From: Nematostella vectensis
Lineage: Eukaryota
Assembly (NCBI RefSeq): GCF_932526225.1
Contig: NC_064047.1
Location: 1,753,027-1,817,026, forward strand
Reading direction: 5' to 3'
Length of the DNA: 64,000 nucleotides
The notes beneath the pieces were generated by a model. The model was not told the origin of the DNA. It did no database searches and saw only the letters and a program-made list of their open reading frames with translations. A program made the translations under genes and the position numbers. Below, in pieces: positions 17,878-64,000 of the stretch. The first letter of the stretch is position 1, and every line of letters begins with the position of its first letter.

Positions 17878-17986
17878 CTCAAATGATATCATAGTGTTAA
17901 ATGTATTCTCGCTGCACCGCCCCGTGGAGGACATCAATTACAGGCATGGCCTCGGCAGACAAAAGCTACTATTCCATGCTTCTAGG
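17878..17986 (+). CDS. PARP4: PARP4-like exon 10, the start of the PARP catalytic fold (His of the H-Y-E triad)
   Basis: ..GRQKLLFHASR resembles ..NVRPLLHGSP. Donor agg|gtaagt. The 3' end of this exon plus its donor is the seed of the downstream 61-bp minisatellite. Confidence 0.85.
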
Positions 17987-20420
17987 GTAAGTCATTCTAT
18001 AAAGACATTACCTCGGCAGACAAAAGCTACTATTCCATGCTTCTAGGGTAAGTCATTCTATAAAGACATAACCTCGGCAGACAAAAGCTACTATTCCATG
18101 CTTTTAGGGTAAGTCATTCTAAAGACATTACCTCGGCAGACAAAAGCTACCATTCCATGCTTCTAGGGTAAGTCATTCTATAAAGACATTACCTCACCGG
18201 ACAAAAACTACTATTTCATGCTTTTAGGGTAAGTCATTCTATAAGACATTACCTCGGCAGACAAAAACTACTATTCCATGCTTCTAGGGTAAGTAATTCT
18301 ATAAAGACATTACCTCGGCAGACAAAAACTACTATTCCATGCTTCTAGGGTAAGTCATTCTATAAAGACATTACCTCACCGGACAAAGGCTACTATTCCA
18401 TGCTTTTAGGGTAAGTAATTCTATAAAGACATTACCTCGGCAGACAAAAGCTATTATTCCATGCTTCTAGGGTAAGTCATTCTATAAAGACATTACCTCG
18501 GCAGACAAAAACTACTATTCCATGCTTCTAGGGTAAGTCATTCTATAAAGACATTACCTCACCGGACAAAAACTACTATTTCATGCTTTTAGGGTAAGTC
18601 ATTCTATAAAGACATTACCTCACCGGACAAAGGCTACTATTCCATGCTTCTAGGGTAAGTCATTCTATAAAGACATTACCTCACCGGACAAAGGCTACTA
18701 TTCCATGCTTCTAGGGTAAGTCATTCTATAAAGACATTACCTCGGCAGACAAAAGCTACTATTCCATGCTTCTAGGGTAAGTCATTCTATAAAGACATTA
18801 CCTCGGCAGACAAAGGCTACTATTCCATGCTTCTAGGGTAAGTCATTCTATAAAGACATTACCTCGGCAGACAAAAGCTACTATTCCATGCTTTTAGGGT
18901 AAGTCATTCTATAAAGACATTACCTCACCGGACAAAGGCTACTATTCCATGCTTCTAGGGTAAGTCATTCTATAAAGACATTACCTCGGCAGACAAAAAC
19001 TACCATTCCATGCTTCTAGGGTAAGTCATTCTATAAAGACATTACCTCGGCAGACAAAAGCTACCATTCCATGCTTCTAGGGTAAGTCATTCTATAAAGA
19101 CATTACCTCAGCAGACAAAAGCTATTATTCCATGCTTCTAGGGTAAGTCATTCTATAAAGACATTACCTCGGCAGACAAAGGCTACTATTCCATGCTTCT
19201 AGGGTAAGTCATTCTATAAAGACATTACCTCGGCAGACAAAAGCTACCATTCCATGCTTCTAGGGTAAGTCATTCTATAAAGACATTACCTCGGCAGACA
19301 AAGGCTACTATTCCATGCTTCTAGGGTAAGTCATTCTATAAAGACATTACCTCGGCAGACAAAAGCTACTATTCCATGCTTTTAGGGTAAGTCATTCTAT
19401 AAAGACATTACCTCACCGGACAAAGGCTACTATTCCATGCTTCTAGGGTAAGTCATTCTATAAAGACATTACCTCGGCAGACAAAAACTACCATTCCATG
19501 CTTCTAGGGTAAGTCATTCTATAAAGACATTACCTCGGCAGACAAAAGCTACCATTCCATGCTTCTAGGGTAAGTCATTCTATAAAGACATTACCTCGGC
19601 AGACAAAAGCTATTATTCCATGCTTCTAGGGTAAGTCATTCTATAAAGACATTACCTCGGCAGACAAAAACTACTATTCCATGCTTCTAGGGTAAGTCAT
19701 TCTATAAAGACATTACCTCACCGGACAAAGGCTACTATTCCATGCTTCTAGGGTAAGTCATTCTATAAAGACATTACCTTTGCAGACAAAGGCTACTATT
19801 CCATGCTTCTAGGGTAAGTCATTCTATAAAGGCATTACCTCGGCAGACAAAGGCTACTATTCCATGCTTCTAGGGTAAGTCATTCTATAAAGACATTACC
19901 TCGGCAGACAAAAGCTACTATTCCATGCTTTTAGGGTAAGTCATTCTATAAAGACATTACCTCACCGGACAACGCTACTATTCCATGCTTTTAGGGTAAG
20001 TCATTCTATAAAGACATTACCTCGGCAGACAAAAGCTACTATTCCATGCTTCTAGGGTAAGTCATTCTATAAAGACATTACCTCACCGGACAAAAACTAC
20101 TATTTCTTGTTTTTGGGGTAAGTCATTCTATAAAGACATTACCTCGGCAGACAAAAACTACTATTCCATGCTTCTAGGGTAAGTCATTCTATAAAGACAT
20201 TACCTCGGCAGAAAAAAAAAACTACTATTCCATGCTTCTAGGGTAAGTCATTCTATAAAGACATTACCTCGGCAGACAAAAGCTACTATTTCATGCTTCT
20301 AGGGTAAGTCATTCGATAAATATATAACCTAGGCGGACAAAAGCTACTATTCCATTCGTTTTAGGGTAAATCATTCTATAAAGACATTGCCTATAGGCGG
20401 ACAAAATCTACTATTCCATT
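17950..20420. repeat. Minisatellite of about 61 bp x about 40 copies, derived from the exon 10 3' end plus its splice donor
   Basis: Unit cctcggcagacaaaagctactattccatgcttctagg|gtaagtcattctataaagacattac is identical to the last 37 nt of exon 10 plus 24 nt of intron. Every copy carries an agg|gtaagt donor. Confidence 0.95.
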
Positions 20421-20619
20421 CTTGTAGGGCAATTTATTTTTTACAAACATGGTTACAAACTAGGTTTTCTTCGCCTCTAAGGGTAAGGGGTTTTTTGTTC
20501 TTTTTCCGGCTTGAAATAAAAGAAAGACAATGATATCGTGAGGACTTTTGATGAAAGTATAGTCGACAAAGAGACAATAAGCTATTAAGTCTAACTATTT
20601 CTGTTTTGTTGTATCGCAG

Positions 20620-20648
20620 GTCAGGAATTTTGTTGGAATACTCTCGAG
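20620..20648 (+). CDS. PARP4: PARP4-like exon 11 (29-bp micro-exon)
   Basis: VRNFVGILS resembles VQNIVGILCRG. Bounded by cgcag| and |gtaaat. It restores the phase between exons 10 and 12. Confidence 0.75.
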
Positions 20649-21337
20649 GTAAATCCATTTAATATATGTTCCACTTAATCTCCTCCACAGGAATCTCGAG
20701 TGTTTTTTTGGACTTTTCCGTACTTTTATGAATTCGGGTTCCTGTGGTACTATTCATGTAAGATATTGGACTGAGGGCTAGTTGAACCGGAACCAGGCCC
20801 CCGCTCTTTCTTGATCACGCCACACGAAGCCCAAAATCGATAAAAGCCTGAGTCCCTGTCAGCCGCAATTTGTCATCTTCACGAAATACGAAGAACGAGA
20901 AACGGTCCACTTCTGACTGCTCTTCTGTTATATTTTCGATTTGAGTTTGTAAAAAAAGTATAAAATTATGTTTGTGAGTGACTACTATAAGATTTCCTCA
21001 TCATCATCTGTTTTCCAATAGGGAATAAACACGATAACAAAGGTATGGCTAACCGCGCTGTGTCAAAGCCAAGGAAAACTAATAAAATCTGATACTAGAT
21101 TATAATTTGATGTACTGGCAACGGAGAGAATATTTCGATGCAATGAAGCTAAATAGAAAAAAAAATTAATTAAACGTTTGTGAGAATTAGTAAAAACGAT
21201 AAATTGAAAATTGCACATACTGGGTTCCAGGGTTCATCTGGTCCATCTGGAAAATTCCTTCCTATTCCTTCGAATTGTCTGCTCTCTTTCCGTGTGCATG
21301 TCTCGTATGTAAAACTAAAAGTGTAGCATTCTTTCAG

Positions 21338-22479: not shown

Positions 22480-22578
22480 GAATATCGTAAGTTTACTAAA
22501 GATCTGACGCGACCGCCTGACGGGTATAATAGCGTCATAGGTGTCAAGGCGACCGAGACGCAGCCATCAGACTTCAAG
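22480..22578 (+). CDS. PARP4: PARP4-like exon 14 (catalytic)
   Basis: ..TRPPDGYNSVIGVKATE..SDFK resembles ..TEAPPGYDSVHGVSQTA..TDFE. The exon end plus donor is duplicated downstream. Confidence 0.85.
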
Positions 22579-22589
22579 GTAACGCCTCA

Positions 22590-23150
22590 CTACTACACAG
22601 TAGGTCACGGTAGACTATGTCACGACATGATATGTCACGGTAGGATATAGGTTATGTTACATTATGGTGTAGGGATCAAGGCGACCAAACCATCAGCCTT
22701 CAAGGTGACGCCTTACTAGTAGGTCACGGTAGAATATGACACGTAACAAACGGCGGGTTAAAGGTATCAAAGCGACCAAACCATCAGCCTTCAAGGTGAC
22801 GCCTTATTAGTAGGTCACGGTAGAATATGACACGTAACAAACGGCGGGTTAAAGGTATCAAAGCGACCGAACCATCAGACTTCAATTTGATGCCTTACTA
22901 CATACTAGGTCACGCTAGAACATATGTCACGACACAATATGTCACGGTACAACATATGTAACGACACGATATGTCACGGTAGTACATATGTAACGACACG
23001 ATATGTCACGGTATAACTTATGTAACGACACGATATGTCACGGTAGAACATATGTAACGACACGATATGTCACGGTAGAACATATGTAACGACACGATAT
23101 GTCACGGTAGAACATATGTAACGACACGATATGTCACGGTGAGGTCATAG
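22590..23150. repeat. Compound tandem repeats in PARP4-like intron 14: about 95-bp units that re-copy the exon 14 end and its donor (..caaggcgaccaaaccatcagccttcaag|gtgacgcc), and a 33-bp unit (gtaacgacacgatatgtcacggtagaacatat) x 6
   Basis: Direct inspection. The first unit overlaps exon 14's last 30 nt. Confidence 0.85.
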
Positions 23151-23488: not shown

Positions 23489-23935
<447 letters not shown>

Positions 23936-26139: not shown

Positions 26140-29100
26140 TTCTATATATATCCTATTTACATGTACATCAATTGCGCCCCTTTCACATGTACATCCTGTA
26201 TACCCCTTTTACATGTACATCCTGTATACCCCTTACACATGCACATCCTGTATACCCCTTACACATGTACATCCTGTGTACCCCTTACACATATACATCC
26301 TGTATACCCCTTACACATGTACATTCTGTGTACCCCTTACACATGTACATACTGTGTACCCCTTACACATGTACATCCTGTGTACCCCTTACACATATAC
26401 ATCCTGTATACCCCTTACACATTTACATTCTGTGCACCCCTTACACATATACATTCTGTATACCCCTTTCACGGGTACATCCTGTGTACCCCTTACACAT
26501 GTACATCATGTGTACCCCTTACACATGTACATCCTGTGTACCCCTTACACATGTGCCTCATGTGTACCCCTTTCACATGTACATCCTGTATACCCCTTAC
26601 ACATGTACATCCTGTGTACCCCTTTCACATATACATCATGTATACCACTTTCACGGGTACATCCTGTGTACCCCTTTCACATGTACATTCTGTATACCCC
26701 TTTCACGGGTACATCCTGTGTACCCCTTACACATGTCCCTCATGTGTACCCCTTTCACATGTACATCATGTGTATTCCTTACACATGTGCATCCTGTGTA
26801 CCCCTTTCACATGTACATCCTGTATACCCCTTACACATGTACATCCTGTGTACCACTTTCACATATACATCATGTATACCACTTTCACGGGTACATCCTG
26901 TGTACCCCTTTCACATGTACATCCTGTATACCCCTTTCACGGGTACATCCTGTGTACCCCTTACACATGTCCCTCATGTGTACCCCTTTCACATGTACAT
27001 CATGTGTATTCCTTACACATGTGCATCCTGTGTACCCCTCTCACATGTACATCATGTGTACCCCTTACACATGTACATCATGTGTACCCCTTACACATGT
27101 ACATCCTGTGTACCCCTTTCACATGTACATCCTGTGTACCCCTCTCACATGTACATCCGGTGTACCCCTTACACATGTACATCCTGTGTACCACTTACAC
27201 ATGTACATCATGTGTACCCCTTACACATGTACATCCTGTGTACCACTTTCACATGTACATCATGTGTACCCCTTACACATGTACATCATGTGTACCCCTT
27301 TCACATGTACATGCTGTCTACCCCTTACACATGTACATCCTGTCTACCCCTCTCACATGTACATCATGTGTATTCCTTACACATGTACATCCTGTGTACC
27401 GCTTTCACATGTACATCCTGTGTACCCCTTACACATGTACATCATGTGTACCCCTTACACCTGTACATCCTGTGTACCCCTTACACATGTACATCCTGTG
27501 TACCCCTTACACATGTACATCCTGTGTACCCCTTTCACATGTACATCCTGTGTACCCCTTACACATGTACATCCTGTGTACCCCTTTAACATGTACATCA
27601 TGTGTACCCCTTTAACATGTACATCTTGTGTACCCCTTACACATGGATATCATGTGTACCCCTTTCACATGTACATCCTGTGTACCCCTTACACATGTAC
27701 ATCATGTGTTCCCTTCACATGTACATCCTGTGTACCCCTTACACATGTACATCATGTGTACCCCATCACATGTACATCCTGTGTTCTCCTTACACATGGA
27801 CGTCATGTGTACCCTTTCACATGTACATCCTGTGTTCTCCTTACACATGGACGTCATGTATACCCTTTCACATGTACAACCGGTGTTCCTGTTACACATG
27901 TGCATCCTGTGTACCCCTTTCACATGTTCATCCCGTGTACCCCCTTACACATGTACATACTGTGTATCCCTTACACATGTACATCCTGTGTACCACTTTC
28001 ACATGTACATCATGTGTACCCCTTACACATGTACATCATGTGTACCCCTTTCACATGTACATGCTGTCTACCCCTTACACATGTACATCCTGTCTACCCC
28101 TCTCACATGTACATCATGTGTACCCCTTACACATGTACATCCTGTGTACCGCTTTCACATGTACATCCTGTGTTCCCCTTACACATGTACATCATGTGTA
28201 CCCCTTACACATGTACATCCTGTATACCCCTTTTACATGTACATCCTGTGTACCACTTACACATGTACATCATGTGTACCCCATCACATGTACATCCTGT
28301 GTACCCCTTACACATATACATCCTGTATACCCCTTACACATGTACATTCTGTGTACCCCTTACACATGTACATACTGTGTACCCCTTACACATGTACATC
28401 CTGTATACCCCTTACACATGTACATTCTGTGTACCCCTTACACATATACATCCTGTATACCCCTTACACATTTACATTCTGTGCACCCCTTACACATATA
28501 CATTCTGTATACCCCTTTCACGGGTACATCCTGTGTACCCCTTACACATGTACATCATGTGTACCCCTTACACATGTACATCCTGTGTACCCCTTACACA
28601 TGTGCCTCATGTGTACCCCTTTCACATGTACATCCTGTATACCCCTTACACATGTACATCCTGTGTACCCCTTTCACATATACATCATGTATACCACTTT
28701 CACGGGTACATCCTGTGTACCCCTTTCACATGTACATTCTGTATACCCCTTTCACGGGTACATCCTGTGTACCCCTTACACATGTCCCTCATGTGTACCC
28801 CTTTCACATGTACATCATGTGTATTCCTTACACATGTGCATCCTGTGTACCCCTTTCACATGTACATCCTGTATACCCCTTACACATGTACATCCTGTGT
28901 ACCACTTTCACATATACATCATGTATACCACTTTCACGGGTACATCCTGTGTACCCCTTTCACATGTACATCCTGTATACCCCTTTCACGGGTACATCCT
29001 GTGTACCCCTTACACATGTCCCTCATGTGTACCCCTTTCACATGTACATCATGTGTATTCCTTACACATGTGCATCCTGTGTACCCCTCTCACATGTACA

Positions 29101-30800
29101 TCATGTGTACCCCTTACACATGTACATCATGTGTACCCCTTACACATGTACATCCTGTGTACCCCTTTCACATGTACATCCTGTGTACCCCTCTCACATG
29201 TACATCCGGTGTACCCCTTACACATGTACATCCTGTGTACCACTTACACATGTACATCATGTGTACCCCCTACACATGTACATCCTGTGTACCACTTTCA
29301 CATGTACATCATGTGTACCCCTTACACATGTACATCATGTGTACCCCTTTCACATGTACATGCTGTCTACCCCTTACACATGTACATCCTGTCTACCCCT
29401 CTCACATGTACATCATGTGTATTCCTTACACATGTACATCCTGTGTACCGCTTTCACATGTACATCCTGTGTACCCCTTACACATGTACATCATGTGTAC
29501 CCCTTACACCTGTACATCCTGTGTACCCCTTACACATGTACATCCTGTGTACCCCTTACACATGTACATCCTGTGTACCCCTTTCACATGTACATCCTGT
29601 GTACCCCTTACACATGTACATCCTGTGTACCCCTTTAACATGTACATCATGTGTACCCCTTTAACATGTACATCCTGTGTACCCCTTACACATGGATATC
29701 ATGTGTACCCCTTTCACATGTACATCCTGTGTACCCCTTACACATGTACATCATGTGTTCCCTTCACATGTACATCCTGTGTACCCCTTACACATGTACA
29801 TCATGTGTACCCCATCACATGTACATCCTGTGTTCTCCTTACACATGGACGTCATGTGTACCCTTTCACATGTACATCCTGTGTTCTCCTTACACATGGA
29901 CGTCATGTATACCCTTTCACATGTACAACCGGTGTTCCTGTTACACATGTGCATCCTGTGTACCCCTTTCACATGTTCATCCCGTGTACCCCCTTACACA
30001 TGTACATACTGTGTATCCCTTACACATGTACATCCTGTGTACCACTTTCACATGTACATCATGTGTACCCCTTACACATGTACATCATGTGTACCCCTTT
30101 CACATGTACATGCTGTCTACCCCTTACACATGTACATCCTGTCTACCCCTCTCACATGTACATCATGTGTACCCCTTACACATGTACATCCTGTGTACCG
30201 CTTTCACATGTACATCCTGTGTTCCCCTTACACATGTACATCATGTGTACCCCTTACACATGTACATCCTGTGTACCCCTTACACATGTACATCCTGTGT
30301 ACCCCTTACACATGTACATCCTGTGTACCCCTTTCACATGTACATCCTGTGTACCCCTTACACATGTACATCCTGTGTACCCCTTTAACATGTACATCAT
30401 GTGTACCCCTTTAACATGTACATCCTGTGTACCCCTTACACATGGATATCATGTGTACCCCTTTCACATGTACATCCTGTGTACCCCTTACACATGTACA
30501 TCATGTGTTCCCTTCACATGTACATCCTTTGTACCCCTTACACATGTACATCATGTGTACCCCATCACATGTACATCCTGTGTTCTCCTTACACATGGAC
30601 GTCATGTATACCCTTTCACATGTACATCCTGTGTTCTCCTTACACATGGACGTCATGTATACCCTTTCACATGTACAACCGGTGTTCCTGTTACACATGT
30701 GCATCCTGTGTACCCCTTTCACATGTTCATCCCGTGTACCCCCTTACACATGTACATACTGTGTATCCCTTACAAAATGTAAATCCGATGTACCCCCATC
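26140..30800. repeat. 26-bp satellite (consensus ccccttacacatgtacatcctgtgta), about 178 copies, organised in a 2049-bp higher-order repeat, inside PARP4-like intron 19
   Basis: Identical ORF segments recur at offsets of 2049 bp (27702/29751; 27602/29651), and a third copy of the 27702/29751 segment begins 750 bp after the second (29751/30501). The 26-bp unit has variants ..tttcac.., ..catgtg.. and ..cgggtac... Confidence 0.95.
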
Positions 30801-32184: not shown

Positions 32185-32422
32185 AGCAGTGCTCAACTAT
32201 TAAAGCCACATTGTCACCAGTTTACTTCCGGAGGTCCGTCGGAAACCTCAACCGTTAAAAGACAAAAGAATCTATTAGAATCCGCGCTATAAAACGGGCC
32301 ATCCGCTCTAAACTATCAGTCAAATCCTTTTAAATATTGAAATATTTTCCGCAGTTTCCGTTAAAAATCATCAGAGATAGTTACGTAATTGACCGGAAGT
32401 AAACTGGTAACAAGGCGGCTTT
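32185..32422. mobile_element. MITE family A (about 240-250 bp; 27-bp TIR aagccgcattgtcaccagtttacttccgg; TA target-site duplication, Tc1/mariner-Stowaway-like), copy 1
   Basis: The TIRs are present at both ends and are flanked by TA. Confidence 0.85.
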
Positions 32423-33270: not shown

Positions 33271-33467
33271 TCCGTCAAAGCTGTCAAGGGAAGTACCGAC
33301 CTCTGGCGCGTACTGCGCTCGCTGTACCTGCTCCGATGCAACTCAACCGCTGACTACCCGAGTAATGTGTTCCTCTTCACCGACGGTCACGTGACAGAGG
33401 AGAGCACGACACTGGCGTATATCCGGGATATTAGGTTGCGCACGCGCGTGTTCACGTTCGGTGTCGG
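33271..33467 (+). CDS. PARP4: PARP4-like exon 25 (vWA)
   Basis: ..GSTDLWRVLRSLYLL..NVFLFTDGHVTEESTTL..TRVFTFGVG resembles ..GNTDFWKTLRYLSLL..NILLVSDGHLQDESLTL..TRLFACGIG. Confidence 0.9.
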
Positions 33468-33474
33468 GTAAGAT

Positions 33475-34045
33475 GGCAATGTCACCAGTTTACTTCCGGC
33501 GATTACGTAACAGTCTCAGATGATTTTTTACGGAAACGCGAAAAAACGCGGATGGCCTGTTGAATGTCCTGTCAATCCCTAGTATCAATTAACAAACTAT
33601 TTTGTCGATATTTAACAGAATTTATGGAGAAGATTACGAATATCGACGTCTTTTTGCCCGTTTCGGCCTAAAAGTGGACATTTTGGCGATTACAATTTTA
33701 CTTCCGGTCGAATATACGGCGGAAGTAAATTCACCCTATAGGTTTTAACACTAATTTGATGGTTTTTCCGTTTAAATAAAACGATCTTCATAGATTTCAA
33801 AGGCTACGAAAAATATATCATCGAAACAATTGATCTCTTCGACATATTATCACTGCAAAAAATCTTGGATGCAAATATTCTCAAACTTAGTTTGTTTTGA
33901 GTATAAGTCTAGGTCACTTTTTCACGTACTCTACGCCAGATTTTCTATTATATCCGGATAATAGTGCGGATTATAATAGGTTATTTTGTCTTTTGTCGGT
34001 TGAGGTTTCAATCGGCCCTCCAGAAGTAAACTGGTGACAATGCGG
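33475..34045. mobile_element. MITE family A copy 2, about 570 bp, with extra internal sequence (composite or nested)
   Basis: Outer TIRs caatgtcaccagtttacttccgg .. ccagaagtaaactggtgacaatgcggc. An internal partial TIR pair lies at about 33700-33740. Confidence 0.7.
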
Positions 34046-38548: not shown

Positions 38549-38692
38549 TCGACAGGTGACCGCGTGGCCGGACTTGTCTCAGAGGCCCGGGTACTAGAGC
38601 GCTTCTCGGTGCTTCAGGCTGAGACGCTATACAAGCGAGCCTGCGATACTGCCTTATCAGCGGAAAGCCCTGACAACCGGGCGACATACAAG
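38549..38692 (+). CDS. PARP4: PARP4-like exon 33
   Basis: Bounded by ttag| and |gtaacc; phase 0/0. Resemblance to the PARP4 region ..GLGVLPAFTSNLERGGV.. is loose. Confidence 0.55.
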
Positions 38693-38984
38693 GTAACCCA
38701 GTTTCTCTCCGTCGTAACTCATGTTGCAATCGTCTTTACTAAATAACCAAAAATGTACTACTGCGAAACAGACTCGAAAATCGATTCAGAAAAGCTACCG
38801 GAAAAACTACACGAAGCGATTGGCCAAAAATAGGGAGACTGGGGCGAGACCGTTTTTTACACAACTAAGCTCGGCTATTCCAGCTCGGCTGTTTCGCCTT
38901 TCACGCAACTAGCGCCTGTTGGGTAGGCTAGAAATGTGCGAAATCATAAGTTAGGAAGTAATAAAATGAATGTCAGAGGAAGGC

Positions 38985-39185
38985 ATCTCTAAGCACCCCC
39001 TGCACCCCCGAACGCACCCCCCACACACACACACAACGGTCCATTTTGGTTCTCAATAGACGTGCTATTTGTAGACAAAACTCAAAATCATAAGCTAGAT
39101 CACTATGTAACTATGTAGCCAGATCCGACAATAAACGTCCCATGGAGATACTGCAAAGGCATAAAAATCCCTTTTTTGTTCTTTC
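38985..39185. repeat. MITE family C truncated copy, reverse orientation
   Basis: Contains caatagacgtgctatttgtagacaaaactc, the reverse complement of the family C core. Confidence 0.7.
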
Positions 39186-39503
39186 GGAGGTGGTTAGATT
39201 TTTATCAGTAGGAGGTAAATTTATTTTACAATATAATCAGACGCACAAAGACTCACAAAAATCTTCAAAAGAGATGGAGCGTTAGGTAATTGGAAGAAGA
39301 AGAAGAAGAATCGTACCCTGTCAAATCTGATAGTTATTGACTTAGCCTTCTAAACTAGACGCCATATTGAAAATGACCTAGAAAACTTGGGGACGAGGAT
39401 GTGGTTACCAGGTCCTTCTGGGTAATTTCAAGATGGCGCTATTAAATTACACGTAATTCCAACGTCAAATCCCTGACCGAGACTTTTCAATGGTTTACCT
39501 CAG

Positions 39504-39597
39504 GCCTTCCTATCGCTGGCCCAGTTCTACGTTGACGTGCATGGCGACCTCCAGAAGGCAGAGGCACTTACGATGATGCTGCATGGGGCTCTAGGTG
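39504..39597 (+). CDS. PARP4: PARP4-like exon 34
   Basis: Bounded by cag| and |gtacgt; phase-consistent; open frame. Confidence 0.5.
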
Positions 39598-39959
39598 GTA
39601 CGTCATCGTCTTTTTGTCAGGATTTGCTTCGCCAAGTCCTCGTGTCCGTTTACTTACTTTCTGTTTGTTGCTTATTTTGTGTTATAATTATCAGGGCTGT
39701 AACGGACATCGAAAAACTGTGGGGGGGGGGGGGGGGGGGAGGGGGCACAATACATGAAATGAAGAAAGCTGGAGGGGCACAAGAAAAAAAAAGGGGATAC
39801 TGTCCCCCCTCTGGCCCCTGGCCCCCGGTCGCTAGGGCAATGATTTTATTAGTGTGAAGGAATTCTCCAAATGAATAACTAAAAATAAAAATCAGGATGT
39901 TAAGGTATAGCCGGATACATTACCGGTGAGGGGGAAGGGATGGAGGGTGGGCGGGGAAC

Positions 39960-41707
39960 GTAAATGAACACTTTTCCTTTATTTCTGTTAGGGGTCGAAC
40001 ACTATGAATGAACACTTTTCCTTTATTTCTGTTAGGGATCGAACACTATGAATGAACACTTTTCCTTTATTTCTGTTAGGGATCGAACACTATGAATGAA
40101 CACTTTTCCTTTATTTCTATTAGGGATCGAACACTATGAATGAACACTTTTCCTTTATTTCTGTTAGGGATCGAACACTATGAATGAACACTTTTCCTTT
40201 ATTTCTGTTAGGAATCGAACACTATGAATGAACACTTTTCCTTTATTTCTGTTAGGAATCGCACACTATGAATGAACACTTTTCCTTTATTTCTGTTAGG
40301 GATCGAACATTATGAATGAACACTTTTCCTTTATTTCTGTTAGGGATCGCACACTATGAATGAACACTTTTCCTTTATTTCTATTAGGGATCGAACACTA
40401 TGAATGAACGCTTTTCCTTTATTTCTGTTAGGGATCGAACACTATGAATGAACACTTTTCCTTTATTTCTGTTAGGAATCGCACACTATGAATGAACACT
40501 TTTCCTTTATTTCTGTTAGGAATCGCACACTATGAATGAACACTTTTCCTTTATTTCTGTTAGGGATCGAACATTATGAATGAACACTTTTCCTTTATTT
40601 CTGTTAGGGATCGAACACTATGAATGAACACTTTTCCTTTATTTCTGTTAGGGATCGAACACTATGAATGAACACTTCTCCTTTATTTCTATTAGGGATC
40701 GAACACTATGAATGAACACTTTTCCTTTATTTCTGTTAGAGATCGCACACTATGAATGAACACTTTTCCTTTATTTCTATTAGGGATCGAACACTATGAA
40801 TGAACACTTTTCCTTTATTTCTGTTAGGAATCGCACACTATGAATGAACACTTTTCCTTTATTTCTGTTAGGAATCGCACACTATGAATGAACACTTTTC
40901 CTTTATTTCTGTTAGGGATCGAACATTATGAATGAACACTTTTCCTTTATTTCTGTTAGGGATCGAACACTATGAATGAACACTTTTTCTTTATTTCTGT
41001 TAGGGATCGAACACTATGAATGAACACTTCTCCTTTATTTCTATTAGGGATCGAACACTATGAATGAACACTTTTCCTTTATTTCTGTTAGGGATCGAAC
41101 CCTATGAATGAACACTTTTCCTTTATTTCTGTTAGGGATCGAACACTATGAATGAACACTTTTCCTTTATTTCTGTTAGGGATCGAACACTATAAATGAA
41201 CACTTTTCCTTTATTTCTGTTAGGGATCGCACACTATGAATGAGCACTTTTCCTTTATTTCTGTTAGGGATCGAACACTATGAATGAACACTTTTCCTTT
41301 ATTTCTATTAGGGATCGAACACTATGAATGAACACTTTTCCTTTATTTCTGTTAGGAATCGCACACTATGAATGAACACTTTTCCTTTATTTCTATTAGG
41401 GATCGAACACTATGAATGAACACTTTTCCTTTATTTCTGTTAGGAATCGCACACTATGAATGAACACTTTTCCTTTATTTCTGTTAGGGATCGAACACTA
41501 TGAATGAACACTTTTCCTTTATTTCTGTTAGGGATCGCACACTATGAATGAACACTTTTCCTTTATTTCTGTTAGGGATCGAACACTATGAATGAACACT
41601 TTTCCTTTATTTCTGTTAGGGATCGAACACTATGAATGAACACTTTTCCTTTATTTCTGTTAGGGATCGAACACTATGAATGAACACTTTTCCTTTATTT
41701 CTGTTAG
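39960..41707. repeat. Minisatellite of about 44 bp x about 40 copies, derived from the exon 35 acceptor (polypyrimidine tract, AG, and the first exon bases)
   Basis: Unit tgaatgaacacttttcctttatttctgttag|ggatcgaacacta. The true junction reads ..tttctgttag|gtatcgaacacgatg. Confidence 0.9.
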
Positions 41708-41798
41708 GTATCGAACACGATGTCTCCTCGCGATCCAACTTTGACGATCTGCTTGAGCATTTGCGACAGGACAGTTCGTATAGCGACGAAGTGGGGAG
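41708..41798 (+). CDS. PARP4: PARP4-like exon 35. Its acceptor and first about 12 bp seed the upstream 44-bp minisatellite.
   Basis: Bounded by ctgttag| and ag|gtaggg. Only one frame is open (IEHDVSSRSNFDDLLEHLRQDSSYSDEVG), and it is the phase-compatible one. Confidence 0.5.
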
Positions 41799-42618
41799 GT
41801 AGGGAATGGCTGGGTAATCGCCGTGCATTGATGGACATTTTTTTAAACATCCATTGTAGGTAACACTTAATGACTTTATTTTCGTTATTAATGAGACTGT
41901 TGTTGTTTCGTGTCGGTCACATTACTTTAGTATGCCCTCATTATGCAGTTTTTGGCGTCATGTTTTTCACTTGACGCCTTCCAGATCACTGAACTAGTTG
42001 TGTCCTTAGATCGATGATATATTTTCGCCAATTATATTGTATATTAACCGTCTATACTGTTATTGCTCAATAAACTAAACCAGCTGGATGGCTATCATCC
42101 TACATGTTGTCTATCTTATTTCATAATATAGACAATAAATATTTTCTATTCGGCTGAACGCAGTGAAAGAGAATAGAATTGAGCTTAAAGGGGCAGTGTA
42201 CTAGTAGAGCTTTGCAAACGTTCTTCGGCCCGGACACACTGGATTCCAGTCGAATTGTAATATTGACTTATGGTGCATGTGGGAAACTCAAATTCAGAAA
42301 AAAAGACCACAAACTGTCAATAAACACAGTTTTCAATAAAATTTTACATATTATTTTAAGAAGGCATTGGCAACTTAAAGTTCAGCTGTTTGTAGACAAT
42401 TAAAAGCCTGCAAGAAACGCTGACTCAAGACTTGCGTAATACCATGACGCTGCCCCTTTAACTGAACGCGTAGAATCTAAAATAAGGGGAGAAGTGGTAT
42501 TTGTTGATTATAAAACAATTAAAAATTAGGAAGCGAAGTGCGGAAAAAGCGAAGCTTTTCAATCATCCGCATTTTAAATAAAAACTTCCTAAATGCATTT
42601 GTATTTTTTATTTCACAG

Positions 42619-42998
42619 GCTGGTTGCTGAATTTAACCCAATGAAGGATATAAACAAATCCAAACGAAAAGTCATAGCTTCTCTTTTTCCAAATGTCGAT
42701 TATCCATGGAGCCAAACTGTAGTTAATAAACTGTTTGAAGCGTGCCGTTCTGAATCCAGCACGGAGACTGGTTCAACAGCTAGTTCGACGTCCAGTTCCG
42801 AAAGCAGTTCGGAAGAAGAACTGTCAGATAACTCGGAAGATTCCGACTGGGGTAGCGACGAGTTTTACGAAGACAATATAGACGATGAAGTTTACCAAGA
42901 TGCCGTCGGCGAGGAAGAAGAAGAGGAGGGCGAAGATGATGTGTATGGCATGTGCCTTGAAGAAGCCGAGGAAGTAGAAAGATCAGAGGCACCAACGC
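42619..42998 (+). CDS. PARP4: PARP4-like exon 36 (Ser/acidic-rich)
   Basis: Bounded by cacag| and |gtaagt. Open frame of 126 codons ending in an acidic tract (SSSESSSEEELSDNSEDSDW..EEEEEEGEDD), comparable to the acidic region of the PARP4 tail. Confidence 0.6.
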
Positions 42999-43289: not shown

Positions 43290-43393
43290 GCACTTGTTAT
43301 CGATGTTGGCTCCCACATGTGGAAGGTTGGGTTCGCAGGTGACGACGCGCCTAAGGGTGTGTTCCCGCCAATTGTCGGCCGACCTCGCCACCA
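43290..43393 (+). CDS. Actin-derived cassette exon A, spliced in-frame into the PARP4-like gene
   Basis: [34 protein letters not shown] matches actin residues about 8-41 ([35 protein letters not shown]). It ends at the conserved actin 41/42 intron position. Bounded by ttttag| and cag|gtaaac. Phase 1 in, phase 0 out. Confidence 0.6.
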
Positions 43394-43401
43394 GGTAAAC
43401 T

Positions 43402-44178: not shown

Positions 44179-44371
44179 GGCGTGATGGTAGGAATGGGGC
44201 AAAAGGACTCTTATGTGGGTTGGGAGGCACATTCCAAGCGTGGTATTCTTTCTCTCTCTACCCCCCAAAAACGTGAAGCTCGCCCCACTCCTCCCTTGCA
44301 AGATCGCCCCCCTCCTCCCTTGCAAGATCGGCCGCCGCCTGCGATGGAAGGAAGGGCTTTGACGAAGGACC
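44179..44371 (+). CDS. Actin-derived cassette exon B: actin residues about 42-65, then a divergent Pro-rich stretch
   Basis: [26 protein letters not shown] matches actin [26 protein letters not shown], followed by [32 protein letters not shown]... Bounded by ctgcag| and c|gtaagt. Exons A plus B total 297 bp, a multiple of three. Confidence 0.55.
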
Positions 44372-44924
44372 GTAAGTGCAAAAGTGATCCATGATCTGTC
44401 TGCTTTTTTTTTTTGGCTTATTCTTGGGGAAGCTTATTTGCAGGCGTTCCTCAGTGATCGCTTATAGATGCTGGGCCCTATAGCATACTCTTTGTCTCAT
44501 GTATAATGGACATCTAGCACTAAGAAATCGCGTGACTCTTTAGCTGGCAAATTCACGCCAAAATAAGCGCAGAAATGTCTGCGCTCGTCACGCCAGATAG
44601 CGCACAGAAATAAAATCTTCCAATGAAAATGAGCTCTTTCTGACTGATTTGTAAGCGCTGAAATGAGTATACTCAAACAGCTGTGTTCTTTAATAAGTTA
44701 AGTAGGCCACTTGCGCTAAGAAATCGGGTGACTTTTTTGTAGAAAACTCGCGCATTTATTGTTTTTTAGCCGGAAAATGACAAAACAAAAAGCGGCTTAT
44801 TCTACTTATAATTGCTCCAAGCAGAGTATAAGCCACTTTTTCAAGTTCTAGGTTTGCACTTCGCCTGTCATATGGATGACAATAGTTCACGCATCCCCAT
44901 GGTGGATGCGTAGTGATACAAACC

Positions 44925-47870: not shown

Positions 47871-49312
47871 CCCCTCTTACGGATATACTCAGTGCTAATA
47901 CCGGACTCCTCCCATTCGCAGTCGCCAACATACCGTCACCCAAACCGCGGCCACCTAGGGCCTCTAAGATAGCCGCACCACCGGCTCCATCCCTACAAGC
48001 TGTCTGTATCGACCTCCCGGAACCTCCCCTGAAGGCTGGGGACTCACCGTTGAAAAGATCTGTAAAAGCACCACTACCACCTCCTCCACCTCAACAAGCT
48101 TCCCGGATCGACTACCGGGCTTCATATGGAGCCGCACCACCGGCTCCATCCCTACAAGCTGTCTGTATCGACCTCCCGGAACCTCCCCTGAAGGCTGGGG
48201 ACTCACCGTTGAAAAGATCTGTAAAAAAACCACTACCACCTCCTCCACCTCAACAAGCTGCCCGGATCGACTACCGGGCTTCATATGGCGCTCCACCTCT
48301 TCCTCCGAAGAGAGGTGGAGGCCCACCTCTTCCTCCGAAGAGAGTCGCCAACATACCGTCACCCAAACCGCGGCCACCTAGGGCCTCTAAGATAGCCGCA
48401 CCACTGGCTCCATCCCTACAAGCTGTCTGTATCGACCTCCCGGAACCTCCCCTGAAGGCTGGGGACTCACCGTTGAAAAGATCTGTAAAAGCACCACTAC
48501 CACCTCCTCCACCTCAACAAGCTTCCCGGATCGACTACCGGGCTTCATATGGAGCCGCACCACCGGCTCCATCCCTACAAGCTGTCTGTATCGACCTCCC
48601 GGAACCTCCCCTGAAGGCTGGGGACTCACCGTTGAAAAGATCTGTAAAAAAACCACTACCACCTCCTCCACCTCAACAAGCTGCCCGGATCAACTACCGG
48701 GCTTCATATGGCGCTCCACCTCTTCCTCCGAAGAGAGGTGGAGGCCCACCTCTTCCTCCGAAGAGAGGTGGAGGCCCACCTCTCTTCGGTGCCATGGCTT
48801 TGAGGACAGGTGCCCCCTCAAAGGCATCGAAACCAAGTTTTGGTGGAAGAGGTCAACCACAGGTGTTCGCAACATCTGCTAGTGAAATCCTTCACCCGAG
48901 GCTAGCCCGAACTCCATCTGAACTCGCGCCCAAAGGAGTCCCATCACAGACTAATGATGAAGCTCCAGTTTTTATGTCCCGACTACAACTGTTGGAAAGT
49001 ATTCGCGCGAAGAAAAAGACCAAGGAGACCGACAGAGAAGATATTATGAAACAGGATGACTCAGGTGAGGCCGATATTTTACGCAGAGAAGCCCACCAAC
49101 ATAGCATGGAAACAGAGCTAGAAGCTGATAGGAATGAGGCTGAAATGGGTGTTCGTCCGGTACCACGAAAGCGTGGTAAGAGGATGCTGGAAAAGAAGGC
49201 GGCGGAGCAGAAAAAGGAGGCGATGGAAGAGCCCTCGGAATCGTTGCAGAACAGAATGCGGAAATGGATGACCGCTGACAAGTTGTTGGAGCTGTTTGCG
49301 TCTCAGCATAAC
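47871..49312 (+). CDS. PARP4: PARP4-like exon 40: Pro-rich, with an internal 423-bp in-frame tandem duplication and a WH2-like stretch
   Basis: Acceptor cccccag| (alternative at 47921, same phase). Open frame of 480 codons. The 141-aa unit VANIPSPKPRPP..PPLPPKRGGGPPLPPKR occurs twice (47921-48343 and 48344-48766). Donor aac|gtaagt. The PARP4 tail is likewise Pro-rich. Confidence 0.65.
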
Positions 49313-57950: not shown

Positions 57951-58695
57951 TGATATTTGTAAAGCGGTTGCATTTATGCGGACTATTCTCTATATGACTG
58001 TTTACTATGAGGCTAAGACAACCATGCATCATTATTCTGATCACTGATGGCCTACACGCGCGGCAGGCTCTTATTTTGTTGGTGCCCTGTGGGTTGAGCC
58101 CACAGGGAGTGTAGCCTTGGGCGAGGCTACCGAGACCCATGGAAATCGTAAAGGAACACAGAGAAAAAATAATGACAAATTTGATAGTGGAAACTAAAAA
58201 TGAAAAGACATTCAGTGTATCATCCTGTTTTCTATGGCTAGACCTCGCACTCACGCTTTCTGGCACGAAAATATCGACAAGTTCCGCTGAACCTGTTTAA
58301 AATTCCTGTTTGCTTTATACCAGCCCCCAAAACTGTATCTATTTCCTCCTATCACAGCTGTCTTTCCCCTCCCAACCATTCCCCCAATAAATGCTGATCT
58401 TCAAGAAGAAATCCATTGTGCTTGTTTAGATTTTCCAAGATTTTGAATTCTCCGGCACACTTCACAGAAACGCCGTGTGCTTTCATGATGCTTGCGAAGT
58501 CTAGCCATGAAAAACATCTTGTAATACCGCTAATAGAATCTTGTTGTTCCCAAAGGTCCTGAAAAGAAGGGGGGTGGGGGGGTGGGTGGGATCTGCATTT
58601 AAAACTGTTAGGTAAAATACCGTTTTTAAAATGAAGCACTCAATTCTTGCGGGTAATGTTATCAGGTAATCACTTGACGGTTCCAATTCTTAATT

Positions 58696-59796
58696 TTGCC
58701 ATATTCTGATGTTCATGCTAGGCTAATCGTAGACGGAGAGCTAACTCGTGCATTTGAATACAACTGTGGTGTCAAGCAAGGATGTAAGTTAGCACCAACT
58801 CTATTCGGCATCTATGCTGCTGTCCTGCTCTGGTTGGCCTTTAATAAAATTGAACACACCTGCAGCATCAAGATAAGATTCCGATTTGATGGTAATCTCT
58901 TCGATCTTCGCAGGCTCAAAGCAAAAACAAAAGTCCTTACGGAATTCATCAGAGAGGCACAGTACGCTGACGATATCGCCTTATTTAGCGATACCCCAGA
59001 GGGTCTGCAGTCTTTACTTACATCGTACAATGAACTTGCTAAGAGAATGGGGATGCGCATTAACACTAAAACGACGGAGACTATGTGTATTGGTAATACT
59101 GCCGACTTTTATGTTGATGGCATTAAGCTGGTCAATGTTACTCACTTTAAATACCTTGGTAGTATCCTGTCAAGTGACTGCTCAATGAGAGCGGAGCTCA
59201 CATCTCGTATACAAGCTGTATCATGTGCTTACGGTCGCCTTCGAAAGAGAGTTTTCGACTCACGTGATCTCACCGTACCAACCAAGATCGCTGTTTATAA
59301 TCAATGTCTAATGCCTCTCTTATTGTACGGTAGTGAGACATGGACTGTATATCAGCATGAAGTTAGAGAACTTCGTACTCTGCAACAACGCCATTTACGC
59401 CTAATCCTCAAGATCAAGTGGGATGACTATATAAGCAATGAAGACGTCCTCCGTCGTGCAAACGTAGATGATATTGAAACAAAATTAGCTAGAAATCGTC
59501 TCCGCTGGCTTGGTCACCTCTGCCGAATGGACGATGACAGAGTGCCTAAGCAGCTGTTATTTTCGGAGCTAGAACACGGGTCTCGCCCAGTTGGTCGTCC
59601 TAAACTAAGATTCAAGGACATTTTGAAAAAAGACCTCAAAATTGGATGCGTCCTTGAAGCGTGGAACTATCATGTACATAATAGAAAGGAATGGAGGGCG
59701 ATCACAAATAACATCTGCACGTCATACGACAAAAGAAGATATGAAACCTATTTAAAACAAAGGGAAGCTCGCCGTAAAAGGGCGGAGAACAGTTAA
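58696..59796 (+). CDS. LINE ORF2 fragment (C-terminal half of the reverse transcriptase, plus C-terminal region)
   Basis: GVKQGCKLAPTLFGIY (RT motif), YADDIALF (catalytic YxDD box), ..RLRWLGHLCRM..GRPKLRFKDIL.. C-terminal motif typical of RTE/CR1/L2-type LINEs. 366 codons without a stop. Confidence 0.85.
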   Translation: MPYSDVHARLIVDGELTRAFEYNCGVKQGCKLAPTLFGIYAAVLLWLAFNKIEHTCSIKIRFRFDGNLFDLRRLKAKTKVLTEFIREAQYADDIALFSDTPEGLQSLLTSYNELAKRMGMRINTKTTETMCIGNTADFYVDGIKLVNVTHFKYLGSILSSDCSMRAELTSRIQAVSCAYGRLRKRVFDSRDLTVPTKIAVYNQCLMPLLLYGSETWTVYQHEVRELRTLQQRHLRLILKIKWDDYISNEDVLRRANVDDIETKLARNRLRWLGHLCRMDDDRVPKQLLFSELEHGSRPVGRPKLRFKDILKKDLKIGCVLEAWNYHVHNRKEWRAITNNICTSYDKRRYETYLKQREARRKRAENS

Positions 59797-62945: not shown

Positions 62946-63202
62946 CCTGTCAACACTGTTTATGAGATGCTGTGGTAGGGTTTAAACAAAATCAATCCCA
63001 ATCTTTATTCTTTTTTAAATATATTAAGAACCTTATTCTTCTTTGGAGGGTGACTAAAATGGTAAATTTTAATCCTAGCAGGTTCTGTAAACTGACCAGC
63101 AAAACACATTAGCACATGGTGGGAACCTCTTGTTCCACATAAAGAATAAACATACTTTATCTCATAGTGCAAATTCCATGACATTCCTAATGATTTTTTT
63201 AG

Positions 63203-63309
63203 TGCAAAGAATGGAGCAGGCCAAGAAACACAAGGAAGAGATAGAGAAGAACCAACACCGCCCACACCACATTCCTATAGTGGAGAAGACAAATGAGGAA
63301 GACAAGGAG
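63203..63309 (+). CDS. DGCR6: DGCR6-like exon 3
   Basis: ..KKHKEEIEKNQHRPHHIPIVEK.. resembles DGCR6 ..RQKHQEAQQACRPHNLPVVQA... Bounded by ttttag| and gag|gtacag. Confidence 0.8.
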
Positions 63310-63341
63310 GTACAGTGTTATGATACAGTTATACTACTTAA

Positions 63342-63592
63342 AGCCGCATTGTCACCAGTTTACTTCCGGAGGTCCGACAGAAACCTCAACCGTTAAAAGA
63401 CAAAAGAATCTACTAGAATCCGAGATATTTAACAGGCCATCCGCTCTAAATTATCAATCACATCCTTAAAGAAACTTCCAATACCCACTACTTTCCATAT
63501 TTTGAAATATTTTTCGCTTCTTCCGTTAAAAATCATCGGAAATTGTTACGTAATCCACCGGAAGTAAACTGGTGACAATGCGGCTTTAAGCA
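63342..63592. mobile_element. MITE family A copy 4, inserted 32 bp downstream of DGCR6-like exon 3
   Basis: Bounded by TA|aagccgcattg..caatgcggctt|TA. Its internal sequence is collinear with copy 1. Confidence 0.85.
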
Positions 63593-63639: not shown

Positions 63640-64000
63640 GGGTACAGTACAAGAAACACAAGGAAGAGATAGAGAAGAACCAACACCGCCCACACCACAT
63701 TCCTATAGTGCAGAAGACAAATGAGGAAGACAAGGAAGAGATAGAGAAGAACCAACACCGCCCACACCACATTCCTATAGTGGAGAAGACAAATGAGGAA
63801 GACAAGGAAGAGATAGAGAAGAACCAACACCGCCCACACCACATTCCTATAGTGGAGAAGACAAATGAGGAAGACAAGGAAGAGATAGAGAAGAACCAAC
63901 ACCGCCCACACCACATTCCTATAGTGGAGAAGACAAATGAGGAAGACAAGGAAGAGATAGAGAAGAACCAACACCGCCCACACCACATTCCTATAGTGCA
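63640..64000. repeat. 72-bp tandem array (at least 5 copies, running to the window end) that copies part of DGCR6-like exon 3 in frame (EEIEKNQHRPHHIPIVEKTNEEDK)n
   Basis: The array unit equals bp about 63232-63303 of exon 3. The period is 72, a multiple of three. The array is separated from the exon by a MITE insertion. Confidence 0.9.

Follow-up and report, generated by a model that had tools for sequence, protein, structure and literature searches.

A 64,000-nucleotide stretch of Nematostella vectensis DNA (assembly GCF_932526225.1, contig NC_064047.1, positions 1,753,027 to 1,817,026 of the forward strand; called the window, and numbered from its first base) contains 40 head-to-tail 44-bp units in an intron of the PARP4 gene. 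Each unit joins a copy of the 3' end of this intron to a copy of the start of the following exon. The array is likely to be a lineage-specific, length-polymorphic minisatellite of the 'mirage' type, a reading held with good confidence, and is probably neutral or slightly costly. The observations underlying this identification are the anatomy of the array, the annotated exon at its edge, the ancestral intron, the absence of the array from relatives, an allelic difference and the stop codons met by upstream splicing. From them we infer a slippage mechanism, a branch site, the basis of splice-site choice and the involvement of nonsense-mediated decay (NMD). The elements around the array are listed here, and a slash marks the splice junction in all sequences.

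39504..39597, plus strand: upstream exon, RefSeq coding exon 35, which ends ...CTAGGTG/GTACGT in phase 1 and lies in a diverged 14-3-3-like segment (profile and RefSeq mapping).
39598..41707, plus strand: array-bearing intron of 2110 nt, 1745 nt of them array (RefSeq mapping).
39963..41722, plus strand: 44-bp minisatellite of 40 units, consensus AATGAACACTTTTCCTTTATTTCTGTTAG/GGATCGAACACTATG (Tandem Repeats Finder (TRF), in-register print and core matching).
41679..41722, plus strand: unit 40, which holds the authentic acceptor (AG at 41706-41707) followed by the exon's first 15 nt (in-register print; the same in the 2007 assembly).
41708..41798, plus strand: 91-nt exon, RefSeq coding exon 36, which encodes (G)IEHDVSSRSNFDDLLEHLRQDSSYSDEVG(R) and has the donor GAG/GTAGGG; present in all five RefSeq isoforms.
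42619..42998, plus strand: next exon of 380 nt, acceptor cacag/G and donor ACGC/GTAAGT (XP_032219397.2 residues 1365-1490, 100% identity).

TRF reports the minisatellite with a period of 44, 40.0 copies, 96% matches, 0% indels and a score of 3240. An in-register printout resolves exactly 40 units with 0-2 mismatches each to the consensus, and both flanks differ from it at 32-35 of 44 positions. In each unit the last 29 nt of the intron, with the polypyrimidine tract and AG, are followed by 15 nt of exon. A 20-nt core (polypyrimidine tract, AG and G) matched 40 times with up to 3 mismatches compared to an expectation of 0.01 in shuffles, and the unit-to-unit junction matched 39 times. The initial annotation of this DNA had described about 40 tandem copies of a polypyrimidine tract, AG and exon start, and these numbers place that description far beyond chance. 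All 40 core matches fall within the array, so the unit occurs nowhere else in the window, and a metagenome scan for it returned no match.

The authentic junction is the last unit. Unit 40 reads ...TTTCTGTTAG/GTATCGAACACGATG and continues directly into unique exon sequence; units 1-39 read ...TTAG/GGATCGAACACTATG, exactly as written in the initial annotation, which had proposed that the unit mirrors the real acceptor. A T at exon +2 and a G at exon +12 are private to the functional unit 40. At exon +2 the 39 non-functional units carry G, or A in eight cases, and at exon +12 they share a T. Because these 39 units differ from unit 40 at the two exon positions while the 29 intronic nt of unit 40 equal the consensus, the comparison suggests that the amplified copy was an upstream one and had already diverged at two exon-derived sites. 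The array comprises 15 unit types with a mean pairwise identity of 96.1% and no indels. Multi-unit blocks such as EEFB, which occurs twice in the window, and KILB recur along the array, a pattern that would indicate unequal exchange. There is no open reading frame (ORF) longer than 34 aa on either strand and no Rfam match at E values up to 1, and the array RNA folds worse than its shuffles (z = +2.08). These results argue that the array is neither a hidden gene nor a structured RNA.

Since neighbouring plus-strand exons encode BRCT, PARP, VIT and vWA domains, the host gene was assigned as the orthologue of PARP4 (vault PARP). An exhaustive search with 42620-42997 of the next exon as the query returned an 1827-aa protein with 100% identity over 126/126 residues. 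This match is XP_032219397.2, annotated as 'protein mono-ADP-ribosyltransferase PARP4 isoform X2 [Nematostella vectensis]'; its cluster also includes isoforms X1 and X3-X5, and the five diverge from one another only downstream of ~47 kb. The RefSeq protein reads ...AEALTMMLHGALG-GIEHDVSSRSNFDDLLEHLRQDSSYSDEVG-RLVAEFNPMKD..., and exact mapping puts GIEHDVSSRSNFDDLLEHLRQDSSYSDEVG at 41708-41798, where it stands between the peptides of the flanking exons; this holds for XP_032219397.2 and for each of the four other isoforms. The same exon was reached independently, before the RefSeq model was found, by ranking the frame-preserving AG..GT candidates between the neighbouring exons. It was the best of 35, with the strongest pyrimidine tract (15/17) and a usable donor, and 0/39 of the upstream array acceptors qualified. 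The 91-bp exon predicted by the initial annotation is therefore real, with two corrections. It had been numbered 35 but is coding exon 36, a 27-nt micro-exon at 20623-20649 having been missed, and the phase-compatible frame is not its only open one: frame 1 (VSNTMSPRD...) likewise has no stop in the 91 nt, leaving frame 2 as the single closed one. For the upstream exon, a donor at 39594 (CTAG/GTGGTA) was dropped; RefSeq uses 39597 (GGTG/GTACGT) and the phase is unchanged.

The peptide encoded by the array exon gave little in homology analysis. The two exons upstream of it match the 14-3-3-like profile of the orthologues at ~20 bits (conditional E ~3e-8). Adding the array exon changes the match by -0.6 bits, a value equalled by 174/1000 random peptides, and the profile of the orthologues' last 14-3-3-like exon, run against all six-frame pieces, does not rank the array exon. 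A by-eye alignment of IEHD to CELD was set aside as unreliable, the profile showing no peptide homology. Homology searches with the exon 34-36 peptides found nothing in a word-indexed database that apparently returns just short PARP4 fragments, and the open stretches around the array gave no relevant Pfam match.

The direction of derivation was determined by comparison with three related PARP4 loci, all collinear with the gene in the window: L003, a JGI contig that resembles a cDNA and is 74% identical in the VIT domain, and L001 and L002, compact genomic loci from ENA assemblies. L001 and L002 both have a phase-1 intron within one codon of the array intron. Its junctions are GAT G/gtttaag...ctgtag/AT GCT in L001 and GAT G/gttgatt...ctgtag/AC GCA in L002, compared to ...GGT G/gtacgt...ctgttag/GT ATC in the window. 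The initial annotation had called for this orthologous comparison, and its outcome is that these introns are 55 and 60 nt long, respectively, have the same phase and contain no repeats. Since the phase-1 intron is shared and repeat-free in L001 and L002, the intron and its acceptor are ancestral and the array is a later lineage-specific expansion copied from the junction, rather than the reverse. The 61-bp donor-side array in the same gene also argues for the exon-to-array direction because the exon-derived part of its unit encodes the conserved PARP catalytic motif LGRQKLLFHASR.

The opposite direction, in which an intronic satellite or transposable-element repeat was exonised and its last unit became the acceptor and first codons of the exon, is thus largely refuted and was judged highly improbable. 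In its favor, the exon-derived part read on the minus strand (GTGTTCGATCC) bears a loose resemblance to a tRNA B-box, and another intron has a similar motif at ~37610. ARAGORN and Rfam were both negative, leaving a tRNA or short interspersed element origin via this motif unsupported, and the ancestral position and phase of the intron, the confinement of the unit to the array within the window and the coding origin of the donor-side unit all oppose exonisation. A GAACAC...GAACAC microhomology was likewise rejected as the breakpoint: both copies lie inside the unit rather than at its borders, and the array has exactly 40.0 units and leaves no overhang. Intron gain by tandem duplication is a model cited in PMC3087553. 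The duplicated piece in it is an exon segment that contains AGGT. The PARP4 array resembles this model in that a tandem duplication makes extra splice signals beside exon-derived sequence, but no new intron has been made; the intron is ancestral, the duplicated exon pieces are intronic, and L001 and L002 both have an intron within one codon of the array site.

A second N. vectensis allele is available in the 2007 assembly (GCA_000209225.1, scaffold DS469525.1, locus L005). The array has 22.0 units there compared to 40.0 in the window, and no assembly gaps touch the arrays compared. With each unit type given a letter, the 2007 map is PBECEBBBBBBBBBBBKILBBO and the window map is ABBCBDEFGCHEEFBBIJCEEFBKILBMGNCECEBGBBBO. 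Both assemblies agree in the flanks, the last unit and the exon; boundary unit 40 thus stays constant while the internal units are reshuffled. The other arrays differ in copy number between the 2007 assembly and the window as well (61 bp, 39.6 and 40.6; 26 bp, 70.8 and 178.8; 8 bp, 32.4 and 54.2, the last counts being those of the (CTCTCTGT)n tract at 23499-23932), and 91-bp and 32-bp repeats are unchanged. The exact copy numbers of the 2007 allele are provisional. The near-equal copy numbers in the window (40.0, 40.6 and TA x 40.5) were dismissed as coincidence given the 22.0 and 39.6 of the 2007 assembly. One further element adjoins the array.

39930..39957, plus strand: cluster of five G-runs of at least 3 G each, GGGGGAAGGGATGGAGGGTGGGCGGGG (from sequence only).

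This cluster ends 5 nt upstream of the first unit and is a possible G-quadruplex and replication obstacle. A run of ~21 G lies upstream of it in the same intron (39720-39745, plus strand), and the cluster is identical in the two N. vectensis assemblies.

Upstream of the real acceptor, the array adds 39 further AG acceptors, one every 44 bp. The initial annotation had called it an array of cryptic 3' splice sites, and in sequence terms this is correct. Each unit has an unbroken pyrimidine tract and an AG (33 TGTTAG and 7 TATTAG), and no other AG intervenes between the unit start and its own AG. A plausible candidate branch site, AAUGAAC, lies ~24 nt upstream of the AG. Judged by sequence, every unit would be a self-contained 3' splice-site module with an intrinsic strength equal to that of the authentic acceptor. 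Splicing to any upstream acceptor leads to G-IEHYE-TGA, an in-frame stop after six codons, and all three plus-strand frames are closed in the array. The consensus unit contains only one GT, in the weak context TCT/GTTAGG, and the cryptic acceptors could therefore pair just with the real donor, yielding exons of 91+44k nt. The authentic acceptor is the one used in all five RefSeq isoforms, and 0 annotated isoforms use a cryptic site.

A rival reading makes the array a splicing regulator, in which the 39 decoy modules would bind U2AF, SF1 or PTB-type factors, delay or gate excision of the intron, or divert some transcripts to isoforms with a premature stop (alternative splicing coupled to NMD), making PARP4 output dependent on copy number. 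The intact pyrimidine tract, the AG and the AG-free interval from the likely branch site in every unit fit this idea, as do the unstructured and hence accessible array RNA, the premature stop that follows cryptic acceptor use and the 40-copy donor-side array in the same gene. Joint skipping of the array exon and the next exon would also keep the frame (91+380=471 nt). A regulatory role is nevertheless unlikely. The orthologous introns of 55-60 nt lack the array, copy number and unit order vary freely between the two assemblies, the annotated isoforms do not differ at the array, and similar lancelet and human arrays leave splicing undisturbed (PMC3087553, PMC3902484, PMC1557585). The most likely function of the array is none.

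Several points weigh against a silent minisatellite. The silence of the 39 cryptic acceptors is deduced from annotation. The authentic acceptor is the last of 40 equal sites, and 5'-to-3' scanning would favor the wrong ones. Between the array exon peptide and the orthologues' last 14-3-3 helix no homology is detectable, and the reality of the exon consequently depends on phase logic and on the RefSeq models, whose transcript support is assumed. The difference between 22 and 40 units could in part be Sanger-era assembly collapse, and 11 identical B units in a row are suspicious.

The minisatellite reading can be accounted for by a short series of steps. A 44-bp segment across the intron/exon junction of the ancestral PARP4 intron would have duplicated in tandem; it comprised 15 nt of exon and, on its intron side, the AG, the polypyrimidine tract and the likely branch site. 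An upstream copy that already carried two substitutions in its exon-derived part would then have grown into tens of copies through replication slippage and unequal exchange. The copy attached to the exon body would be the only one still making mRNA, and this edge copy would escape homogenisation of the array. Use of an upstream acceptor would add 44n nt and an in-frame TGA, and such transcripts would be non-productive and probably cleared by NMD. The authentic acceptor most likely wins by exon definition, no other site lying as close to the exon body or to the donor, which is 91 nt downstream. The mechanism would be ordinary minisatellite dynamics on a junction-spanning seed.

Two more repeats in PARP4 contain a splice junction, both on the donor side.

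17878..17986, plus strand: exon 10, with the PARP catalytic motif ...GLGRQKLLFHASR (RefSeq mapping).
17950..20429, plus strand: donor-side array of 61 bp x 40.6 (TRF and sequence inspection).
22536..22943, plus strand: exon 14 3' end and donor (...CCATCAGACTTCAAG/GTAACG), followed by three degenerate copies at ~91-bp spacing (TRF and inspection).

The donor array that the initial annotation had placed after exon 10 was recovered with a period of 61 and 40.6 copies. Its first monomer is formed by the last 37 nt of exon 10 and the donor, and the unit consists of 37 nt of exon end, /GTAAGT and 18 more intron nt. Exon 10 ends ...CTTCTAGG/GTAAGT, and 39 more GTAAGT and one GTAAAT follow at 61-bp spacing. 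Decay is greatest in the most distal units. Use of a downstream donor copy runs into an in-frame TAG within the first extra unit. Two of the exon 14 junction copies retain AAG/GTGACG and one has no GT. A 26-bp x 178.8 minisatellite (26159-30796, plus strand; L005 19408-21246) starts ~25 nt past the donor of a VIT exon and does not copy the junction of that exon.

The initial annotation had suggested junction-seeded tandem amplification. The three junction repeats in the gene fit this suggestion; a preference for junctions reaches just P ~0.06. The calculation took ~90 junctions, ~28.7 kb of non-array gene sequence and seven intronic arrays of at least 2.5 copies, and junction-containing arrays account for 3/7 compared to ~1 expected (P ~0.058). 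This excess is suggestive only, and survivorship alone could explain it, since few kinds of intragenic duplication other than the junction-spanning ones spare the mRNA from change.

The same excess speaks for the proposal that junctions are preferred seeds, with a splicing- or transcription-coupled process making tandem duplications at exon-intron boundaries in this genome. Candidate processes are polymerase/replisome conflicts at complexes bound to splice sites and cDNA made from splicing intermediates. A fourth array, in the neighbouring DGCR6 gene, is exon-derived, the 44-bp unit reaches from near the likely branch site to 15 nt inside the exon, and the authors who described lancelet mirages thought the phenomenon possibly general there, with an unclear mechanism (PMC3087553). 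We consider the proposal quite unlikely: the P value comes from one gene under rough assumptions, survivorship could produce the enrichment, the large 26-bp array adjoins an exon without copying its junction, and the 61-bp donor-side unit has no branch-site logic. The broader combination, in which junctions are preferred seeds in Nematostella, as has been suspected in lancelets, through a splicing- or transcription-coupled process and the resulting copy-variable decoy arrays tune host genes such as PARP4 via non-productive splicing, is also improbable.

The PARP4 array is of the mirage or boundary minisatellite kind already known from lancelets and humans, and its host is a cnidarian. Amphioxus mirages are tandem units across an exon/intron boundary that include the splice signal, as in PARP4 (PMC3087553, PMC3902484). 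They affect 3' and 5' boundaries, and the mirage of BflGb6 copies the intron 3' end along with the 5' portion of exon 2 in the manner of the 44-bp unit. Lancelet haplotypes differ in copy number, the units evolve in concert with the boundary units excluded, splicing is undisturbed, and the authors regarded the phenomenon as maybe general in cephalochordates (PMC3087553, PMC3902484). Copy-number variation between haplotypes, concerted units, an excluded boundary unit and an authentic copy at the array edge are likewise found in PARP4. Judged by its sequence, the array thus has every structural property of a mirage that was tested: it is head-to-tail and boundary-spanning, has the junction at its edge, varies in length and shows concerted evolution. 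There are four differences. The host is a cnidarian and not a cephalochordate. The array has 40 copies of a short 44-bp unit, compared to 3-6 copies in the lancelet globins. Acceptor-side and donor-side arrays of ~40 copies occur within one gene, PARP4. Finally, normal splicing was demonstrated by reverse transcription PCR in the lancelet and is deduced from annotation for the PARP4 array.

Human minisatellites with variable numbers of tandem repeats (VNTRs) whose first monomer lies across an exon-intron boundary include those of F7 intervening sequence (IVS) 7 (37 bp x 5-9), IFI6/6-16 (25 pseudo-sites), CBS IVS13, LMNB2 and PDGF (PMC1557585). As in the PARP4 arrays, a polymorphic minisatellite repeats an authentic splice site in identical form within the intron (PMC1557585). 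The 61-bp array after exon 10 has exactly the F7 layout, with the exon end and GTAAGT in the first monomer. The human VNTRs listed in PMC1557585 are all donor-side with the authentic site most upstream, and 5'-to-3' scanning explains their silent pseudo-sites; in F7 the most upstream 5' site alone is used (PMC1557585). The 44-bp array departs from the F7 type in being acceptor-side, with the boundary spanned by the last monomer instead of the first. Because its authentic acceptor comes last, the scanning rule does not explain its site choice, and the silence of its cryptic sites is less self-evident than in F7. No earlier report of such an array in Nematostella or another cnidarian was found in a literature of incomplete coverage.

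Other features of the window include three groups of exons or exon-derived sequence.

38549-39597, plus strand: 14-3-3-like segment of PARP4, also at 3640-3880 in L003, 14522-14970 in L001 and 12968-13638 in L002 (Pfam PF00244/profile).
43291-43396 and 44179-44373, plus strand: actin-like exons of PARP4, also at ~4080-4270 in L003, 17899-18119 in L001 and 14562-14822 in L002 (Pfam Actin, E=7.5e-12, profile positions 5-65).
63202-63309 and 63645-63998, plus strand: exon and exon-derived array in the DGCR6 gene, with copies 85-90% identical to the exon at the protein level.

In-frame exons in PARP4 of N. vectensis and the three related species encode an N-terminal segment of actin (34+26 residues) with an intron at the Q/G position. 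The segment is included in RefSeq XP_048577466.1, and the 2007 annotation treated it as a separate 64-aa 'Actin' gene. An actin D-loop-like module within a vault PARP seems unusual. In the relatives, a C-terminal 14-3-3 fragment lies directly upstream of the actin-like part (Pfam PF00244, E=5e-25, positions 130-223 in L003). The N. vectensis counterpart is strongly diverged, with two exons at ~20 bits and the exon next to the array unrecognisable. Further downstream, a 423-bp (141-codon) in-frame duplication with nested 159-bp repeats lies at 47920-48767 (plus strand) inside a large Pro-rich exon, which is included only in isoform X1 (2354 aa). Isoforms X2-X5 end earlier via alternative 3' exons at ~47.3-47.9 kb and are without the MVP-interaction region at 50.5-50.9 kb.

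The DGCR6-like gene lies at 61-64 kb, where the N. vectensis DGCR6 protein maps to two exons with 100% identity (66/66 and 36/36 residues). Before the first copy of its array stands GGTACAGTA, a sequence similar to the donor of the exon itself, GAG/GTACAGTG. Between the exon and the array lie ~335 bp of other sequence, part of it an apparent inverted-repeat element. A short element recurs in introns at ~32200-32290, 33440-33560 and 63335-63590 and translates as ...CHQFTSGGP.ETSTVKRQKNLLES; the 63335-63590 copy has the terminal inverted repeats aagccgcattgtcaccagtttacttccgg ... ccggaagtaaactggtgacaatgcggctt. This element is probably a family of miniature inverted-repeat transposable elements. 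A reverse-transcriptase-like ORF of 372 aa (58678-59793, plus strand) and a transposase-like ORF of 129 aa (10916-11302, minus strand) are transposable-element remnants flanking PARP4.

The F7 intron-7 VNTR is a classic natural model of 5' splice-site choice, and the PARP4 array is its acceptor-side counterpart. The locus presents 40 equally strong and complete 3' splice-site modules, the last of which alone is annotated as used. PARP4 also carries their donor-side match, again of 40 copies, and the organism offers transgenesis, CRISPR and plentiful RNA-seq. Arrays of this kind can lead gene predictors and short-read aligners astray, and assemblies collapse them. The finding extends the mirage phenomenon beyond cephalochordates and suggests that boundary-spanning minisatellites are a general, tolerated class of intragenic duplication rather than a lancelet oddity.

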